Virus record (IMG/VR): IMGVR_UViG_3300020183_000010
Strand: one strand, 5' to 3'
Length of the DNA: 64,000 nucleotides
DNA from: a virus
Position numbers and translations under genes: made by a program. Numbering within the stretch: the first letter of the stretch is position 1; each line of letters opens with the position of its first letter. Positions 4,649 through 46,942 of this stretch are shown one piece after another. The notes under the pieces were generated by a model. The model worked only from the letters and a program-made list of their open reading frames with translations. It was not told the DNA's origin and searched no databases.

Positions 4649-6316
4649 TTAGATTTCCGCTGCTGCTTCCCCGCCTGCTGCTGCGTCTCCACCTGCTGCT
4701 GCGTCTCCGCCTGCTGCTGCGTCTCCACCTGCTGCTGCTGCGTCTCCTCCGGTAGCTCCGGTAGCTCCAGCTTTTCCTTCCTCTTCCGCTTTTTTCACAT
4801 AGGACTTATTTAACTGTATATCCTCATAAGATAGATCTAGCCATCTTTCTATCATAAAGTCCTGGTCGAAGAACTGAACCTCTTCCTCATTTACTGTTTC
4901 TTTGACTTCCCCTAGTGCAGTAATAAAATCAATTCTTTTTATTAACTGCTCTATCTCTCTTGATTCACCAAATAAATTATCGCTTTCAAACTTAACACCT
5001 ATTTGACTTCTAAATTCAGAATCATTCTTAAGGTCTGGAAAATCTAGACACATTTGAATCCAAAGAGGCTTAACTATTATTTCTTGGAATATTGATCTTA
5101 GCCTAGTTATAAACTTAGCAAATCTTACCTCGTCTCTTTCCGCTCCGTCAGCACCTGTTTTAAAAACGTTATTTGATCCAACACCAAATCTAGAAGAAAA
5201 TCTGTTGTAAGGTATTTTAGAATCTTGTCTTAACTTGTTGTAAAAATAAACAACTGAATCCATAATGTTTAAATTCGGACCTTGTGCGTTAAGTGTTTCG
5301 ATTTTAACAGATTCACCTCCCTGCTGCGGGAATAAATAATTTTTATAAAATTGTATATCCGGCCTACCATTTATTGATAATTCACCGGAAGTTGTATCTA
5401 ATTTAATATCTTCTTTATACACAGACATTAATTCCCCTAAGGTTTCTTTAGCTTTTTGTGGTGCTTTGCTACCAATAGGAACAGTCATTTTAATTCTGTA
5501 TTGTGCATTCATGACATTCCATATTATTCTAGAATGCTCCATAATTTTTAGTAGGTTATAAGATCTTATTAATCTTTCTGTATAAGAAACCCTAGATACG
5601 GTGTTTGCTTTAGCATATGATATGTAGATAACCTGTGCATCTAAAAGTTTTCTTTGTCTAACAGTTTCTCCGTAATACTGCCACCAAATTGTTTCTCTAG
5701 TTCCGCCCGGTTTCTTTTCGACCGCTGGGGTTAAACTCACTGGGTCTAATTCCTTAAATCCTATTATTTCTTTCCCGTCGTTTGAATAGATTATTTCAAA
5801 AGCTAAAAATCCCTCTACTACTAATTGTCTAAAGTATTGCCAAGCAGTTAAGCCATTAGCAAAATTGTGTAAAACATATAGCTTTCTGAAATTTTTTCTC
5901 ATAGCTTTTATGACGTCATCTTTGAGATCCATGCTCATTAGAGCTGGATGACAAAAGAAATTCTTTTCGTCATAAACTATAGCTTCGTCACATATTGTAT
6001 CTAAAATATATTCGATCTCAGCGTTTAAAGCAAAGGTTCTAAGAAAATCTCTCTTGAATGGGTAATCCTTATCGAAATATGCTATATATTTTCTATTAGA
6101 TGTATCCTGTGCTGCTATACTGTATATAAAATCCTCGTCCGAATCTGTAAATCCGAACCTTTCTCTCATATTAGCTTCAGATACACCTATTGCCATAGAG
6201 TCTTGGATAACCATATCCTTATACTCCATACCAAAAGATCCAAGACCACTAATAGTTTTTAATATCCTTGAGATATTGGGATTTATTTTTCCTAAGTTGT
6301 CTAAAAATCCAGCCAT
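4649..6316 (-). CDS. gp20: portal protein (T4 gp20-like), paralog 1
   Basis: EI..ICDEAIV, YNLLKIMEHSRIIW, KAPQKA, ERDEVRFAKFITRLRSIF; low-complexity C-terminal tail. Confidence 0.85.
   Translation of the reverse strand: MAGFLDNLGKINPNISRILKTISGLGSFGMEYKDMVIQDSMAIGVSEANMRERFGFTDSDEDFIYSIAAQDTSNRKYIAYFDKDYPFKRDFLRTFALNAEIEYILDTICDEAIVYDEKNFFCHPALMSMDLKDDVIKAMRKNFRKLYVLHNFANGLTAWQYFRQLVVEGFLAFEIIYSNDGKEIIGFKELDPVSLTPAVEKKPGGTRETIWWQYYGETVRQRKLLDAQVIYISYAKANTVSRVSYTERLIRSYNLLKIMEHSRIIWNVMNAQYRIKMTVPIGSKAPQKAKETLGELMSVYKEDIKLDTTSGELSINGRPDIQFYKNYLFPQQGGESVKIETLNAQGPNLNIMDSVVYFYNKLRQDSKIPYNRFSSRFGVGSNNVFKTGADGAERDEVRFAKFITRLRSIFQEIIVKPLWIQMCLDFPDLKNDSEFRSQIGVKFESDNLFGESREIEQLIKRIDFITALGEVKETVNEEEVQFFDQDFMIERWLDLSYEDIQLNKSYVKKAEEEGKAGATGATGGDAAAAGGDAAAGGDAAAGGDAAAGGEAAAEI
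4657..4771 (-). repeat. coding tandem repeat (about 18 bp units, GGDAAA, preceded by GATGATG) at portal C-terminus
   Basis: Repeated cctgctgctgcgtctcc units visible in the sequence. Confidence 0.85.
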
Positions 6317-6322
6317 TTTATT

Positions 6323-7942
6323 TTATAGTGTAAATTCGTCTCCTCCTGTAGCTCCTTCAGCTCCTGTAGCTCCCTCTGCTCCGGTAGCACCTGCTTCAGC
6401 TTCAGCTGCTTTTTTCTTTTCCTCAGCTGCTTTTTCTTTAAATTTCCTGTTAGTTGTTAAATCTTGTCCTTTAACACCTAACCATCTATCTACTAAGAAA
6501 TCCATACTGAAGTATTTTTTCCCTTGAGAGTTCATTAGAGCAGATATTTTAATTATTTGATCCTTTCTAGCTGTTAGAACCTCCATTTCTTTTGCTTCTC
6601 TGAACATGTTCTCTTTAACATAATCCAAACCAAACTCTGACTTTATTAAATAATCTTTTTTAAGATGTGGAAAATCCAAACAGAATTGAACCCATAAAGG
6701 CTTCATTAGTATCTCTTGATATATTGATCTTAACCTGTTTATAAATTTACCGAACCTAACCTCCTCTTGATCTAATCCCTCTGCGGTAAAAGTAATTGTT
6801 CCTTCGGATCCTGACTCCTCTCTACCGAATCTAGTAGCAGGTATTTTTGAATCCATTCTAAGTTTATTTGCAAAGTACTTAAGAACTGTTGTATCAGAGA
6901 ATGCTGTAGCATCTCCTCCACCTGGTAAAGGTTGTATATCTGGGGTTCCGTTAGGAGAGGAAGGCATTAAATAGTTCTTAAAAAATTGAATCTTTGGTCT
7001 TCCGTCTACACTTAATTCCCCACTATCTGTATTAAGTCTTATATCCTCTTTATATATGGACATTAGTTCTCCTAATGTCTGTTTAGCTTTTTGTGGGGAT
7101 CTCGTACCAATAGGAACCGTCATTGCCATCCTGTATGATGAGTTCATTACGTTCCATATAATTCTGGTGTGCTCCATTATTCTAAGTAGATTAAATGATC
7201 TAATCATTCTTTCACAATAACTAACTCTGGATGATGTTCCTCCACCTTTAGCATAACTTATATAAATTATCTGCGAATCATATAATTTTCTAGTTAATGA
7301 TGGATTATCCGGATATTGTATCCATATATCGGTAAAACTCCCGTCAGGTTGTGATTCTACTGTTGGTATTAGTGACCAGGGATCTAATTCTTTAAACCCT
7401 ACAATATTTTTACCTTTCTTGTCAAATACTATCTCAAAAGCTATATTTCCGTCTACTAGAAATTTTCTGAATAAATGCCAAGCTGATATATCTTGATTAA
7501 ATCCGAAAAGATTGTAGATCTCCTTATATCTTTTTTGGACTTTCTCATATGTTTCATCGTCGACATCGTCATGCTGCATAAAAGAAAAATAAGCCCAGAA
7601 ATTCTTTTCGTCATAAACTATTGACTCGTCGCATATAGTATCTAAAATAAATTCTATTTCTGGGTTTTGTGAAAATCCTTGGAGATAATGTCTTTTATTT
7701 TTATAATCCTTATCGAAATAAGCTATATACTGTTTAGTGGTTGTATCTGCTCTTCTTAAACCAAATAAGAAAGATTCGTCTTTTATACCACCTTTTTGTA
7801 GGAACTGAGCTTCTGTTATACCTACCGCTTGTGAGTTTTTTATGACAAGATCCTCGTAGGCCATACCAAAACTGCCCACTTTCTTTATATTATCTATAAT
7901 AGAACTAAAGAATGATTTTTTTTCGTCAGTAAATCCAGCCAT
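6323..7942 (-). CDS. gp20: portal protein (T4 gp20-like), paralog 2
   Basis: Collinear with and highly similar to 4649..6316 (YIAYFDKDY, FKELDP, PQKAKQTLGELMS, EEVRFGKFINRLRSI). Confidence 0.85.
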   Translation of the reverse strand: MAGFTDEKKSFFSSIIDNIKKVGSFGMAYEDLVIKNSQAVGITEAQFLQKGGIKDESFLFGLRRADTTTKQYIAYFDKDYKNKRHYLQGFSQNPEIEFILDTICDESIVYDEKNFWAYFSFMQHDDVDDETYEKVQKRYKEIYNLFGFNQDISAWHLFRKFLVDGNIAFEIVFDKKGKNIVGFKELDPWSLIPTVESQPDGSFTDIWIQYPDNPSLTRKLYDSQIIYISYAKGGGTSSRVSYCERMIRSFNLLRIMEHTRIIWNVMNSSYRMAMTVPIGTRSPQKAKQTLGELMSIYKEDIRLNTDSGELSVDGRPKIQFFKNYLMPSSPNGTPDIQPLPGGGDATAFSDTTVLKYFANKLRMDSKIPATRFGREESGSEGTITFTAEGLDQEEVRFGKFINRLRSIYQEILMKPLWVQFCLDFPHLKKDYLIKSEFGLDYVKENMFREAKEMEVLTARKDQIIKISALMNSQGKKYFSMDFLVDRWLGVKGQDLTTNRKFKEKAAEEKKKAAEAEAGATGAEGATGAEGATGGDEFTL

Positions 7943-9022: not shown

Positions 9023-9379
9023 TTATACATTATAATTGGAATTCTCCTCTCTTACTATTCTAGAAAAAGGAATAGTCTTAGGGGATTTTGGTGGATGTAT
9101 TTTTTTCCATCCTTTTTTCATTCCATTGTGTGCTATCTGGGATATAAAAGCAAAAGGATTATCAGACTTAGCTGGATCATATCGATTCCAATATTTAACT
9201 AAGTCTTCCAGTCCTGAAGATATGCAATCTTCTCTGTCTTCATTATCTCGGTAGGAATGTGTCTTGGACATACCGTTTACTATGAGAGTAAACATCTTAA
9301 CGGTCTCATCTGTTAATTGACCTTTTTCTTTGCTTTCTAGAAGAGCTCTTTTTAGCTCTTTGTTTTTTACGTATATCAT
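9023..9379 (-). CDS. gp55: late-transcription sigma factor (short T4 gp55-like)
   Basis: YVKNKEL, DCIS.G.E, YDPAKSDNPFAFISQI. Confidence 0.75.
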   Translation of the reverse strand: MIYVKNKELKRALLESKEKGQLTDETVKMFTLIVNGMSKTHSYRDNEDREDCISSGLEDLVKYWNRYDPAKSDNPFAFISQIAHNGMKKGWKKIHPPKSPKTIPFSRIVREENSNYNV

Positions 9380-9630
9380 TCTTGTTCGGGAATATTATTT
9401 TGGAGCTTTTCTATCTGTTGTTCTAAATTAACCCTTAATTCTTCCAAATTTTTCCTCGAATTTCTAATTGTGTCTATACCTATCTTACCGTTTTCTTCAC
9501 TAGAAGTTTCTAATTCTTTAATCTTTTCTAGACAATTTTTCAAATCATCTAAAACAAAATTGAGTCTATTGCCAACCCCCTCGTCTGGGTCTTTGGCAAC
9601 AGACTCATTTATTGATTCCTTAATTACTAC
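9376..9630 (-). CDS. start-less 84-codon open frame, candidate -1 frameshift extension of the 772-aa protein
   Basis: Frame VVIKESINESVAKD...NNIPEQE* has no ATG, starts at the A9G run, and its TGA overlaps the gp55-like ATG. Confidence 0.6.
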   Translation of the reverse strand, partial: VVIKESINESVAKDPDEGVGNRLNFVLDDLKNCLEKIKELETSSEENGKIGIDTIRNSRKNLEELRVNLEQQIEKLQNNIPEQE

Positions 9631-11945
9631 TTTTTTTTTGTTTTAGGAGCGGAAGCAAATCCTGCTACAGAATCTTTCTCTGCAAATCTTTTCCCGTTCT
9701 TTTTGCTGTTTCCGTGTGCGTCTGCGAAGTTAAAGTCGTCTTCATCCTCCATAAACTTTTTAGATTTTTCAGCTTTACCCTTAGGAGCTTTTTCTATGTG
9801 AGAATTTTTTTGGCTTTCCTTAAGAGTAGCTAAATTCATATTTTTAAGATCCTGGATAAATTTAGCTGATCCTTTTAATGATGCACTTGGTGCTTTAGCT
9901 AAATCAAGATTTTCTAAATCGTCTATGAATTTTTTTCCACTTCCACCTTTTCCTTTGCTAGGAAGATCTGCCATATTAGCAGTTTTTGATTTAACCCCCC
10001 TTCCTGTTAAAGGAGCCGATTTACCGCTCTTAGGTAAACCTGCCATAGTTCCTTTATCGTTGTTTATAAACTTAGGAGAGGATCCAGTTTTTTTGTCTGG
10101 AGCTTGGGCCATATGTTTTTTAGAGAGACTCTCAATTCTAGAATCTTTGTGAGATCCCCCTCTATTTCCTGGAGCGTTTGCAAAGTTCTGGTTAGACTCG
10201 TTTGTGTATTCTAAATCCAAGTCTGGGGCTTTAATATCGTAACGATCAATCTCATCCTCTAAATCTTCAACATCTGAGAAGAAGTATTCCCCGGTTTTAC
10301 CTTCTTTGAAAAGGATAGTATATGTTTTAGAGCTTCCGTCTACTCCAATAACTCTACCTTTGTTACCGTTTCTTTTAATTCTAACCTCTGTATCGATAGG
10401 ATAACCAAGATCTTCATTAACTGAAGGAATTTCTTTTGCTTTATTTTCAAATCTAGATATCTCTAGATTTATTTGATTCCATCTATCTTGAAGAGAAGAT
10501 ATCTCATCATGTATACTTTCTTCTAAAGCTACAAGTTCTTGCGATTTAGTAAGTAAAGGATTTTCCTTCTTAGCTATATCTAATTTTCTAAGTTGGTTTT
10601 CTAGAATTTCTACGTTTTTAATGATCTCATTTTTATCATTCTTCATAACGCTTAAGAAAGCTTGTTCTCCTTCTAAGAATTCTGTTAATGATTCAGAAAT
10701 ATCATATTTAATAAAATCTTTAATGATATTAATTGCTTGCGTTGCGTTAGCTTCGTAGATTTTGTTTAATCTCATAGCTGGATTAACTGTTTGTACATAA
10801 ATTCCAGACTCAGTTTTAAAGATATTAGCTTCTACGTTTTCGTATACCTTAGATCTTATTTTCTTTCCAAAATCTATATCAACAATATTATCAGCATTCT
10901 TAGCTACGAAGACAGCTTTATTGATTTTGTGATTAGAGCTTTCTAATAGGTTATTAGTACTAACACTAACAGCAACAGGAAGATCTGATTCATTTATTCT
11001 TTTTCCGTCAAAATAAACCTCCTTAGATTCATTAGTAAATACAATCTCTACCTTATTATTTCCTATGTTTAATGAAATCTTATTGTTATCTATTTTAACG
11101 TCTCTATCGCTAATTATTTGAGCTTGATCTGCAAGTTCGTCTGGTACTTCGTCCATGTTACATTCTTGTAGAACACCAGACTCGTGATCAATCTTCAGGA
11201 ATTTGCCAGAAGAATAAAATAATGTTTCACTTTCGTTAACCGTTATAGGTGAGTAAAGGTTGTCTATTTTACAAACATTGTTATCAAACCCAACGTGGAA
11301 CTTACTAGAGTTATCATTTTCGTAAAGAGATAAAAAGCTAACTAAATTTCTAACTAAAGGATTAAATCCAAAGCTTTTTAATCCATGGATAAGAGTGTCA
11401 CTAGATTTATTTTCAGAAAGTAACCAGTTTTTCATTTGTCCAGTAGCATCGGAAAAAAGCTCTCTCCCTGGTGCATTTTTAATGGATTCATATGCTTTAA
11501 CGACTTCGATTTCTCTTCTTCTATTTTCGAAAATAGTATTTAGATTTTCTAAAACAGGAGCTACTGAATTTTCCCAAGAGAAAGATTTAAGATCGTTAAA
11601 TAGCCCTTCGATTATAAAAGCTTCAGAAATACCTTTTCCTAATAGTAAGTGCTCGTATTTTTCAAGTAAGATCTTACCTGCTGGAAGATCTCCTAGTGAA
11701 GAATTTTTTAAAGCTGAAACCGTATTAACTAGTCCAAAACTAAAAACAACGTTGTTTTTTGGCTTTGTTGAAATGTCAGGCATTTGTGATTCTTTAAGCA
11801 TTTGAGCTGTTGAACCGCTAAGGAAAGAAGATGCAACAGGTTTTTTCTCTGACCCTAAACCAGCCCATTCTCTAAGAGAATCTGCAGCGTTTTTAGAAGT
11901 CTCCATATTTAATCTATTGATCTCTGGATTAATATTTTTTTCCAT
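9627..11945 (-). CDS. large putative head/core structural protein
   Basis: 772 aa, coiled coil, C-terminal (M/L/F)AxAP repeats, many (L/V/I)xE sites like T4 prohead protease sites; preceded by GATATATA. Confidence 0.5.
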   Translation of the reverse strand: MEKNINPEINRLNMETSKNAADSLREWAGLGSEKKPVASSFLSGSTAQMLKESQMPDISTKPKNNVVFSFGLVNTVSALKNSSLGDLPAGKILLEKYEHLLLGKGISEAFIIEGLFNDLKSFSWENSVAPVLENLNTIFENRRREIEVVKAYESIKNAPGRELFSDATGQMKNWLLSENKSSDTLIHGLKSFGFNPLVRNLVSFLSLYENDNSSKFHVGFDNNVCKIDNLYSPITVNESETLFYSSGKFLKIDHESGVLQECNMDEVPDELADQAQIISDRDVKIDNNKISLNIGNNKVEIVFTNESKEVYFDGKRINESDLPVAVSVSTNNLLESSNHKINKAVFVAKNADNIVDIDFGKKIRSKVYENVEANIFKTESGIYVQTVNPAMRLNKIYEANATQAINIIKDFIKYDISESLTEFLEGEQAFLSVMKNDKNEIIKNVEILENQLRKLDIAKKENPLLTKSQELVALEESIHDEISSLQDRWNQINLEISRFENKAKEIPSVNEDLGYPIDTEVRIKRNGNKGRVIGVDGSSKTYTILFKEGKTGEYFFSDVEDLEDEIDRYDIKAPDLDLEYTNESNQNFANAPGNRGGSHKDSRIESLSKKHMAQAPDKKTGSSPKFINNDKGTMAGLPKSGKSAPLTGRGVKSKTANMADLPSKGKGGSGKKFIDDLENLDLAKAPSASLKGSAKFIQDLKNMNLATLKESQKNSHIEKAPKGKAEKSKKFMEDEDDFNFADAHGNSKKNGKRFAEKDSVAGFASAPKTKKK

Positions 11946-12006
11946 TTGTAATTCGCTTTTTTAGTATATATCTTACTTAATTAAACTTTCTATGTATTTT
12001 TATCTC

Positions 12007-16174: not shown

Positions 16175-16798
16175 TCAATCATTAAAAGTTAAATTAACAC
16201 CAGGAAACATCTCCCTAACTTTTAATCTTGCTCTCCTAATTCTTGTAGCTATAGCTCTTTTTTTCATTCCGTACTTATCAGCTATCTCTTGATATTTCAT
16301 TCTTAATATCTCCCTATCAAAAAGAATATCTTTATAAATTTCTGGTAGGTCTTTCATCTTTTCGATGACATTTTCATACAAATCTTCCATTTCGTCGTTT
16401 TCAGTTGTTATATAATCAAATTCCGCTTCTAAAGTTACAGGAGATGAGCTTATAGTTGGATATACAGATTCTTCCGATTCATCATTACTCCTTACTACTT
16501 CCTGTATAATTGGTAAATATCGATCCTCGTTCTTTTTAATTCCCAAAGATTCATTTCTTGCTATATTATAAACCCATGTAGAAAAATTACCCCTTGAAGG
16601 ATCATATTGGGATATCTTTGTCCATATCTTTGCCATAGTGTTGGAAACTGCATCCTCTGCTGATTCTTGCTCTATCAATATAGATTTACAATGATTTATT
16701 AATCCTGGTTTAATCCTTTTGTATAATTCAACGAAGTCTTTCTCCGATGATGTTCTCATAAAACTCTCTGCCAATTCCTGAATATTTTTTACTGCCAT
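16175..16798 (-). CDS. ECF-type sigma-70 family RNA polymerase sigma factor
   Basis: Region 2 AEDAVS...YDPSRGNFSTWVYNIARN; region 4 LPEIYK...MKYQEIA...TRIRRAR. Confidence 0.9.
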   Translation of the reverse strand: MAVKNIQELAESFMRTSSEKDFVELYKRIKPGLINHCKSILIEQESAEDAVSNTMAKIWTKISQYDPSRGNFSTWVYNIARNESLGIKKNEDRYLPIIQEVVRSNDESEESVYPTISSSPVTLEAEFDYITTENDEMEDLYENVIEKMKDLPEIYKDILFDREILRMKYQEIADKYGMKKRAIATRIRRARLKVREMFPGVNLTFND

Positions 16799-17548: not shown

Positions 17549-19321
17549 CTAATGAAACTTTTTTCCGTTAGGAATAACAATTAGGGGATTTTTTAACGTA
17601 TTATTCAGCTGAGTTAGTAATGTAACCATAGATTTCATGTTATCTCCTAGCTCTTTCATAGCTTTATCTTGCCCCTCACTTTTTTCTTTGTTTTCCGTTT
17701 CGTTCTGTTGTGTTCCTTCGGTTTTTACCTCTGAAGATGCCTCCGTTTTTTTGTCTTCTGTTTTATTCTGGGTAGTAGTTGGTGAAGATGTATTTGTCTC
17801 GCTCTTCTTTTCCTCAGTTTTATCAGTAGTCGGAGTATTTACACTAGATAAATTTTGTGTTGTTGTTTCTTTTATAGGCGTATTAGTGGTAGAAGTTTCA
17901 GTTTTTTTATCAGTATTTGTAGAAACTTTCTCATCCAGCTTAGTTTCTTTCTTCTCTGTCTTAGATTTATTTCCAGTATTTCCCTTTCCTTTTGTGTCGG
18001 TAGACTCTTCTTTTGGTTTTGTAAATCCTAGTTCTTCTAGGTTCTTATCTACTGCGGCACTTCCTGTTGTTATACCTTTTCCTTTTCCTTTATCTTTTTC
18101 GTCCCCACCCTCTCCTTCTTTTTTGTCTCCTTCTTTAGCCGGCATTTTTAATCCCAGCATTTCTAGTATTCCTTTATTTGATTCGCTAAGAGCTGGTGTT
18201 GTATCTTTACCTTTTTTACCTTTATTGTCCCCTGTTTTTACATCTTCCGCTTTTCCTTTGGCTTCATCTTTTTTCTCTTCCGGTTTTTTCTCCTCTAATT
18301 TTTGTTCTGCTGTTTTAACTTCAGCCCCTTTAGTCTCTTCTGTCTTTTTAGTCTCTTCTGTCTTTTTTTCTTCGACTTTTGCTTCTTCTTTTTTTTCCTC
18401 TGGCTTAGGAAGATCTCCTGTCTTTTTTTCTTCGACTTTTGCTTCTTCTTTTTTTTCCTCTATTTTAGTTTCTTCTGTTTTTGTCTTCGCCTCTTCTTTT
18501 TTTGCCTCTTGTGCAGCATCTTTTATTACATCCTCCGCTTTTTTCCCTTCTTTTTTTTCTATTAGCTTTTTTATGTTATCATCATATGCTTTTGCCATTT
18601 TGGTAACACTCTCATTGGTAAATCCTTCTGCTTCTAAAACTTTCGCTAAAGCAGAAATTATAGCCATATTTTCTGGGGTATATAAAATAGGAGCATATTG
18701 GCTAGCAAGTGTGGATTCCTTAACAGTAAAATACTGTAATAATTTAGAAAAATTATCAAGAAGTGGCTCGAATTTATTTTTTTCGTCCTTTATCTTACTA
18801 TTAAAATCGCTTTTAACATCTTCATATAAGTCAAAATTCTTTACGTCACTAATACCTAAATTGTCTACTATATCGGTAACCCTACCGTCTCTAAGTACTA
18901 GTGCATTACCTATCTTATTCTCAGCAGCTTCCTTAGACATTTCAAAAATCTCCTTGCCGTCTATACTTTCCCCCTTTTCTAATTTCCTTCTTATTTTGTC
19001 TTTATTTGATCCTCCGTCTGAATAAGCTTCCGAATAATAGATAAGGCTTGGATCATAAGCAGGATCTAATCCTTTTACGTTTTTTTCAAATGAATCGTCG
19101 TAAAATTTATTAGCTTCTTTTATAACTTGATCCGCTGATTTTTTTTTCTTTACTAAATCCTCGTCTATTTCTTTTCCTGTAGCCCTCGCAGTTACCCCGT
19201 CACTTTCGATCATTGCTTTTTCCTGTTCCTTGTATTTAGCTCTATCAAAAGCACCTTCGGATGATTTAAATACCGGAAATTCGGATCCTGTTCCCTCTTT
19301 ATTATCTTTTTCTTCTGCCAA
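17549..19321 (-). CDS. Lys/Glu/Thr-rich low-complexity protein, possibly baseplate hub / tape-measure-related
   Basis: Follows gp26/gp51-like genes; EEKK repeats; TTG start. Confidence 0.5.
   Translation of the reverse strand: MAEEKDNKEGTGSEFPVFKSSEGAFDRAKYKEQEKAMIESDGVTARATGKEIDEDLVKKKKSADQVIKEANKFYDDSFEKNVKGLDPAYDPSLIYYSEAYSDGGSNKDKIRRKLEKGESIDGKEIFEMSKEAAENKIGNALVLRDGRVTDIVDNLGISDVKNFDLYEDVKSDFNSKIKDEKNKFEPLLDNFSKLLQYFTVKESTLASQYAPILYTPENMAIISALAKVLEAEGFTNESVTKMAKAYDDNIKKLIEKKEGKKAEDVIKDAAQEAKKEEAKTKTEETKIEEKKEEAKVEEKKTGDLPKPEEKKEEAKVEEKKTEETKKTEETKGAEVKTAEQKLEEKKPEEKKDEAKGKAEDVKTGDNKGKKGKDTTPALSESNKGILEMLGLKMPAKEGDKKEGEGGDEKDKGKGKGITTGSAAVDKNLEELGFTKPKEESTDTKGKGNTGNKSKTEKKETKLDEKVSTNTDKKTETSTTNTPIKETTTQNLSSVNTPTTDKTEEKKSETNTSSPTTTQNKTEDKKTEASSEVKTEGTQQNETENKEKSEGQDKAMKELGDNMKSMVTLLTQLNNTLKNPLIVIPNGKKFH
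18358..18461. repeat. direct repeat, two ~44-bp copies 60 bp apart (EEKKEEAKVEEKKT)
   Basis: ctgtctttttttcttcgacttttgcttcttctttttttttcctct-type unit repeated on consecutive lines. Confidence 0.85.
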
Positions 19322-46850: not shown

Positions 46851-46858
46851 TTTTGGTG

Positions 46859-46942
46859 TACCCAGAGAGGGACTCGAACCCTCACACCTCTCGTCACTAG
46901 ATCCTAAAAAATCTAGCGTGTCTACCATTTCACCACCTGGGC
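46859..46942 (-). tRNA. tRNA-Leu(TAG) with expanded 10-nt anticodon loop
   Basis: GCCCAGGTGGTGAAATGGTAGACAC, CTAGA-TTTTTTAGGA-TCTAG, long variable arm, GGTTCGAGTCC. Confidence 0.8.

Follow-up and report, generated by a model that had tools for sequence, protein, structure and literature searches.

We analyze the end of a gene in IMG/VR virus record IMGVR_UViG_3300020183_000010, a stretch of 64,000 nucleotides (nt; hereafter, the window) from an uncultured lake jumbo phage. The gene encodes a protein of 772 amino acids (aa) and closes on a run of nine adenines (A9), from which an open reading frame (ORF) continues in the -1 frame up to the gene for a gp55-like late sigma factor. All genes of the locus lie on the minus strand. 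The features on which the argument depends are listed here, with the way in which each was characterized in parentheses.

9627..11945, minus strand: 772-aa ORF, the zero-frame product, with C-terminus APKTKKK* (ORF listing and translation)
9630..9641, minus strand: slip site ACA AAA AAA AAG, the A9 run plus G (sequence read-out)
9376..9630, minus strand: -1-frame extension, 84 codons plus TGA, no in-frame ATG or GTG (translation; ratio of nonsynonymous to synonymous polymorphism, pN/pS; AlphaFold2, AF2)
9561..9607, minus strand: RNA hairpin inside the extension ORF, 15 base pairs (bp; one of them G-U) plus a 3-bp inner stem (folding, covariation)
9549..9560, minus strand: U-rich tract AUUUUGUUUUAG directly 3' of the hairpin (kept in all loci of clade A, the clade of the window; UCUUUUUUUG in locus L037)
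9023..9379, minus strand: gp55-like late sigma factor gene, 118 aa (Sigma70_r2, 3e-06; phrog_234 'late sigma transcription factor', 2.8e-16)

The 772-aa ORF ends in GCT CCT AAA ACA AAA AAA AAG TAG TAA, with the A9 run at 9639->9631, the G at 9630, the stop TAG at 9629-9627 and a second stop, TAA, at 9624-9626. The heptamer A_AAA_AAG (9630-9636) stands in the zero-frame phase and has the form X_XXY_YYZ. Read one base back, translation would continue as KKK VVIKESINESVAKDPDEG... from GTA (9630-9628) to GAA (9381-9379) and end at TGA (9378-9376), which overlaps the ATG (9379-9377) of the 118-aa sigma gene as ATGA; counted from the upstream -1-frame TAA, the frame comprises 88 codons. The only canonical start codon in the extension is a TTG at 9543, well within its conserved part. 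The original prediction, made from the letters of the sequence, had described an A9G gene end with A-AAA-AAG, an 84-codon -1 frame without ATG and an ATGA overlap, and all of these are confirmed in the sequence.

Long A-runs are rare on the coding strand of the window. Runs of 5, 6, 7, 8 and 9 occur 261, 116, 65, 12 and 2 times, with a sharp fall above 7, and the two A9 runs compare with about 6 expected; the depletion of runs of at least 8 is consistent with selection against slippage-prone runs. The sole other coding-strand A9 (19139-19147, minus strand) lies in frame (DLVKKKKSADQ) inside an ORF of 590 aa at 17549-19321, where the -1 frame closes after 8 codons and slippage would truncate the protein.

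Conservation of the run and of the -1 frame

Homologues of the 772-aa protein number more than 120, nearly all of them 760-780 aa long, and a fused form of ~856 aa is found in none. The relatives considered here fall into two run-bearing clades (A and B, 27-93% protein identity) and two run-less clades. Clade A was represented by 48 IMG/VR loci (40-93% identity), and every copy that reaches the gene end closes with A9G, A9C or A10 followed by TAA or TAG. In 40/40 clade A loci, the conserved sequence downstream lies in the -1 frame, which runs through the junction without a stop. Among the 53 non-redundant contexts of clades A and B, the run is A9 in 51 and A10 in 2, and a -1 ORF that lacks a conserved start and is under purifying selection is present in all. 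The codon preceding the lysines always ends in A, although it may be ACA, TCA, GCA, AGA, GTA or TTA, and AAG never replaces AAA within the run, whereas the run-less clades mix AAA and AAG freely. The base 3' of the run may be G, C or A, and a zero-frame stop follows the run immediately in 51/53 contexts. Two loci (L074 and L085) carry the run in another phase (GAA AAA AAA ACC), with the zero-frame stop 14 codons on and the extension still in the -1 frame. A loose pattern scan of metagenomes, in which 17/119 loci were true relatives, extends the picture: the DNA assemblies of these further contigs are uniformly A9 at the site (16/17), with the single exception of L130 (Ga0007753_1397729, 1217 nt), which has A11.

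The extension itself has the properties of a protein-coding domain. Clade A extensions are 81-86 aa long and alignable, including that of the 40%-identical L037, and their pN/pS is 0.37 in the ORF frame, as compared with 0.84 and 1.57 in the two alternative frames; of the 7 changes in the hairpin loop that separate the window from L003, 5 are synonymous. Residues 1-12 form a variable linker, with a pN/pS of ~1.3 over its first ~8 codons, and residues 19-78 a conserved helical hairpin (ES..PDEGxGNRLNFVLDDLK.CL.KIKELETSS...QIEKLQNN), for which AF2 predicts helices at 19-47 and 52-78 with a predicted local distance difference test score (pLDDT) of ~90. A search of 1.84 billion representative proteins matched this domain as 45-74-aa gene-caller fragments alone; neither an in-frame fusion nor a complete standalone gene was found among them. 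Comparison with Pfam gave coiled-coil noise only, and tblastn against phage genomes gave nothing meaningful. Gene callers thus either skip an 84-residue domain or emit start-less fragments of it, and the whole lake jumbo phage family is therefore mis-annotated at this locus.

Clade B, which we queried with P0113, shares 27-30% identity with the window protein over its whole length. Its genes end in A9C, A9G or A10 followed by TAA, and continue in the -1 frame for 50-55 aa (LSRNFYFAPK...GKLSKAPTGK plus an acidic tail), prolonging the [LF][AS]xAP repeats of the protein's own tail. By tblastn, no homologue of the clade A extension was found in clade B or in the run-less clades. Conservation of the clade B extension sets in at the second codon past the run, which leaves no room for a separate start, and the pN/pS of this extension is 0.25 versus 1.5 and 1.8 in the other frames. 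In 22/22 unique loci, a canonical terminator lies 0-16 nt past the extension stop, not past the zero-frame stop, so that the transcription unit appears built to include the extension. On these comparisons, clade B is a case for recoding independent of clade A. At one clade B locus (L067:5385-5620), the usual extension stop is lost and the -1 ORF runs for 77 codons into hydrophobic sequence.

The run-less clades (L094-098, 49% identity; L099-101, 36% identity) serve as natural controls. Their genes end in AAG AGT AAG TAA or similar, without an A-run or a -1 ORF (the frame closes after 3-24 codons), and an ordinary canonical terminator follows 20-25 nt past the stop. A tree built from the first 620 residues places both within the run-bearing lineages, and they therefore look like two losses, in each of which the A-run and the -1 ORF appear to have gone together. 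A nucleotide alignment finds short remnants of the clade A extension region in L097, namely GGAAACTTCT and the ~55 nt that immediately precede the sigma ATG.

The comparison shows, at the level of sequence, that run, frame relation and start-less ORF are kept and occur together, and that purifying selection acts on the ORF. We therefore consider it very probable that programmed recoding takes place at the A9 run, and the proposal of two isoforms that arise by a one-base backward frame change at this run has strong comparative support.

Proposed routes from the run to a longer isoform

In the mechanism that we propose, the A9 run at 9631-9639 would act as a programmed recoding site. The majority of transcripts or ribosomes would yield the 772-aa protein, ending KKK at the TAG, and a set fraction would read on in the -1 frame to give an isoform of 856 aa, with a short flexible linker and a ~60-residue helical-hairpin domain added. 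The main route is, on balance, probably slippage of RNA polymerase on the nine-A template: with one A added to the mRNA, the extension would come in frame, in the manner of dnaX of Thermus thermophilus. A further contribution may come from -1 slippage of the ribosome on A_AAA_AAG, and both could act at the same site. The hairpin and its U-tract would lie outside the shift signal, as a terminator-like element inherited from the ancestral gene end, with the extension ORF read through it.

The original prediction had left -1 frameshifting and transcriptional slippage side by side. Recoding as such is supported, and the pattern of conservation favors slippage, because run length is constant while the 3' base, the phase, the adjacent stop and the nearby structure all vary. 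Three features expected of a transcriptional slippage site are found here: a conserved run of at least nine nucleotides that includes synonymous sites, a start-less ORF in another frame that one added base makes reachable, and no dependence on heptamer phase, 3' base or downstream RNA structure.

The strongest competitor is a programmed -1 ribosomal frameshift of the dnaX type, in which tRNA-Lys on A_AAA_AAG slips back one base and reads on from GTA on an unaltered mRNA; we regard it as possible, if doubtful. The heptamer is in the correct zero-frame phase, the stop that immediately follows in 51/53 contexts could help the slip, and A_AAA_AAG, A_AAA_AAC and A_AAA_AAA all permit re-pairing (PMC5009743). 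However, the three A's outside the heptamer are conserved as well, including a synonymous third position across six codons, and the heptamer may end in G, C or A while the system is kept. Of these three heptamers, A_AAA_AAG is by far the most shift-prone in E. coli (PMC5009743). Nor do the surroundings of the site offer the usual stimulators. No structure stands at 5-9 nt: in clade A the hairpin begins only 19-22 nt downstream, and folding detects none near the slip site in clade B (z of +0.8 and -1.2). The alignments reveal no conserved purine-rich element resembling a Shine-Dalgarno (SD) sequence 8-15 nt upstream, and there is no match to an Rfam frameshift element.

The clade A hairpin needs closer attention, since it had been put forward as a dnaX-like stimulator. 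That a 15-bp hairpin exists at 9561-9607 is borne out: it folds at -29.3 kcal/mol (z = -6.5), and 0/200 shuffled sequences fold as well. It begins 22 nt past the G of AAG in the window and 19 nt past it in most relatives; the 8 bp of its core do not vary, and covariation is seen at one pair (GC in 9, AU in 7, GU in 3). Three loci (L016, L025 and L037) have equivalent hairpins with a different inner sequence, which in L037 is GAGTTCGT/ACGAACTC followed by U7. The element thus has the make-up of an intrinsic terminator, a stable stem-loop followed immediately by a U-tract and conserved with compensatory changes, and its distance from the stop is similar to that of the terminator in the run-less sister clades. 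The 17-nt loop of the hairpin is over the limit of a simple terminator scanner. Because it is positioned where the run-less sister clades have their terminator, the hairpin with its U-tract is most readily taken as terminator-like, with the extension ORF of clade A passing through it, and not as a frameshift stimulator. The stimulator role is accordingly not upheld: the spacing of 19-22 nt, the U-tract and the sister-clade position speak against it, as does the slip site of clade B, which has no structure. Conservation in relatives had been named as one check on the proposal; the slip site passes it, with its adjacent stop in 51/53 contexts, and the hairpin is kept in clade A but absent from clade B.

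Several points weigh against polymerase slippage as the main route, or against recoding as we describe it. A correctly phased A_AAA_AAG is the -1 heptamer classically found in bacteria. A zero-frame stop adjoins the run in 51/53 contexts, a proximity that polymerase slippage does not require. A terminator-like hairpin within the extension ORF should cut short many late transcripts before the extension is readable. The A11 of L130 may be a sequencing error or a genuine length variation in DNA or RNA. The argument also depends on how the RNA polymerase and the tRNA-Lys of the host behave. Finally, the production of the long isoform, its proportion and the machine responsible are inferred from comparison. 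The relatives supply a natural test set suitable for telling polymerase slippage and ribosomal frameshifting apart: their ends are A9G, A9C or A10, one variant has the run in another phase, the device appears to have been lost twice independently, and a single slip site carries either of two unrelated extension modules. In members with A9C, among them L020 and loci of clade B, the residue at the junction would discriminate between the two mechanisms, Lys pointing to slippage and Asn to frameshifting.

Two other translational routes to a frame change were considered. Ribosome sliding on poly-A reportedly occurs on runs longer than nine, and we do not favor it here. A phage tRNA with an expanded anticodon loop (46858-46942) was rejected as the cause because quadruplet reading shifts the frame by +1, not -1. 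This tRNA, on the minus strand within a cluster of six phage tRNAs, is reported by ARAGORN as 'tRNA-???' with the four-base anticodon ttta. It scores 46.8 bits against the Rfam tRNA model, with 6 nt against the model's 3, has a long variable arm, and carries the anticodon loop UUUUUUAGGA, closed by a CUAGA/UCUAG stem; a role in quadruplet reading or as a suppressor is possible.

That the extension is instead a separate small gene, with a non-canonical start codon (ATT, ATA or CTG) or with ribosomes re-initiating past the upstream stop, is very improbable. An in-frame ATG does occur incidentally in a few relatives (ESMAKDPDEG in L008, GMG in L037), and gene callers have emitted their 45-74-aa fragments from such starts. 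However, no start codon is conserved, and in L024 the stretch from the run to the conserved Glu-Ser is devoid of any NTG or ATH; in clade B, conservation starts as early as the second codon past the run; and the ORF vanishes together with the A-run in two clades. The linker, variable as it is, is open in the -1 frame in 23/23 unique sequences, with 0 stops versus 45 and 37 in the other frames. A zero-frame small ORF (MSLLPKTQ..., ATG at 9608) was also rejected, because its 'start' is ATG, GTG, TTG or CTG among relatives and the pN/pS of its frame is ~1.

Least probable of all, to the point of being negligible, is an artifact, be it a miscalled homopolymer (the true run being A10, with a single ORF of 856 aa) or a non-coding spacer in which a frame happens to be open. 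Some sequencing platforms are prone to homopolymer errors, and L130 shows A11, but the run is exactly A9 in 51/53 contexts and in 16/17 further contigs from independent assemblies, no fused homologue is found, purifying selection acts in the -1 frame only, and AF2 predicts the helical hairpin of the extension with confidence.

The late sigma gene and the 772-aa protein

A terminator-like hairpin inside the extension and directly upstream of a late sigma gene raises the question of a link between recoding and the timing of late transcription. One idea, which we put forward as speculative and rather unlikely, is a frame-dependent read-through of the terminator, in which expression would reach the sigma gene because ribosomes at work on slipped transcripts keep the hairpin from acting. 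On unslipped transcripts, the ribosome would stop at UAG, 22 nt before the hairpin; the hairpin would form, and late transcription would end. On slipped (A10) transcripts, the ribosome would trail the polymerase through the hairpin in the extension frame and so suppress termination. The 19-22-nt spacing between stop and hairpin would be about enough to leave the hairpin free of a terminating ribosome. The event that makes the long isoform would then also carry late transcription and, via ATGA, translation into the gp55-like sigma gene; if true, this would be a positive feedback on late gene expression. Translational coupling to the sigma gene, which the original prediction had raised, is possible in clade A. 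The ATGA overlap is confined to that clade, being absent from clade B and from the run-less clades, and coupling is therefore not a conserved part of the device. An AAAC-N17-TATAA promoter has no match in 9376-9630.

The order of genes around the sigma gene is conserved in all clades. Downstream of the locus are homologues of gp4 and gp2 and two gp20-like portal genes, and a candidate promoter motif precedes the 772-aa gene:

11965..11972, minus strand: GATATATA motif, candidate late promoter, 20 nt upstream of the 772-aa ATG (motif count)

In the window, this motif has 15 matches versus 7.3 expected, 13 of them on the coding strand. The candidate promoter, together with the gp4, gp2 and portal neighbors, suggests that the 772-aa gene is a late gene. 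The two portal genes (4649-6316 and 6323-7942, minus strand) are tandem, full-length and T4 gp20-like, both matching Portal_T4 at ~1e-61. A second phage sigma gene (16178-16798, minus strand; 207 aa; phrog_1740, 5e-27) lies ~7 kb upstream of the gp55-like gene and adjoins genes for a deoxycytidine monophosphate (dCMP) deaminase and an exonuclease.

As to the 772-aa protein itself, its earlier designation as a 'head-type' or structural protein finds no backing in Pfam, PHROG, folds of the Protein Data Bank (PDB) or the ESM Atlas, none of which yields a match; only the late-promoter-like motif and the neighboring genes speak for it. AF2 predicts a folded region at residues 65-570 (pLDDT 80-90), composed of helical bundles, beta-sheet domains, a long coiled-coil hairpin and a small SH3/Tudor/KOW-like barrel, and pLDDT falls below 50 for residues 611-772. 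A Foldseek search of the PDB found no full-length match (E <= 0.001); only the barrel at ~520-560 resembles Tudor, KOW or SH3 domains. Fold matches in BFVD are to uncharacterized phage proteins only, including one from the jumbo Tenacibaculum phage PTm1, and in distant homologues the Pfam family MSSS (SH3) is matched weakly, below threshold. From residue 570 to 772 the chain is a disordered tail, rich in Lys, Ala and Pro, in which [LF][AS]xAP motifs recur. Many copies of the wider form [LFM]-[AS]-x-A-P (NLAKAP, NLAEAP, LSSAP), often followed by G-K, occur in residues ~600-772 (window 9630-10150, minus strand), and the clade B extension adds two more. Some copies (L-A-E-A) look similar to the L-x-E sites of the T4 prohead protease.

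Comparison with known systems

Recoding of this type is known. We found no description of the 772-aa gene family or its slip site in the literature, only general reviews; as far as we found, it is the phage gene family, widespread and of predicted late class, that is newly seen with it.

The closest parallel is the dnaX gene (tau/gamma) of Thermus thermophilus, which undergoes programmed transcriptional slippage on an A9 run (Larsen et al. 2000, summarized in PMC5009743). In both systems, a conserved run of nine A's lies in the gene, the polymerase adds bases (in the phage, by our reading), the products would share their N-terminus and differ in their C-terminus, and no ribosomal stimulator is needed. 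The outcome is reversed, however: in Thermus, the long product comes from the zero frame and slipped mRNA gives the short one, whereas in the phage the zero frame gives the short product and slipped mRNA would add a domain. The Thermus gene encodes a replicase component, whereas here the gene is a predicted late gene of a phage, for which slippage is proposed from sequence comparison.

The dnaX gene of E. coli combines A_AAA_AAG with a stem-loop ~6 nt downstream and an upstream SD-like element to direct a -1 ribosomal frameshift. The phage site has the identical heptamer in the same phase and a stable downstream stem-loop. Unlike in E. coli, that stem-loop is 22 nt away and terminator-like, no SD-like element is present, the extra length of the run is conserved, and clade B has no stem-loop.

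Gene 10 of phages T7 and T3 (capsid proteins 10A and 10B) undergoes a -1 ribosomal frameshift near the end of a late gene, at a site that is not an A-run. Our locus resembles it in being a probable late phage gene with a -1 shift near the stop, in the C-terminal addition of ~50-85 aa to what would be a minority product, and in the terminator just downstream. However, T7 gene 10 encodes the major capsid protein, whereas the 772-aa protein matches no capsid fold or family, and in clade A the hairpin lies inside the extension ORF.

Transcriptional frameshifting on poly-A has also been described for tssM of Citrobacter rodentium and Yersinia (PMC4256274). The phage locus shares with tssM a poly-A at the junction of two ORFs, where slippage of the polymerase gives, or in the phage would give, length variants of one protein. 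Whereas tssM is an interrupted gene of a bacterial type VI secretion system that slippage rescues, the phage arrangement appears to be ancestral to a large family, in which interchangeable extension modules are carried on one slip site.

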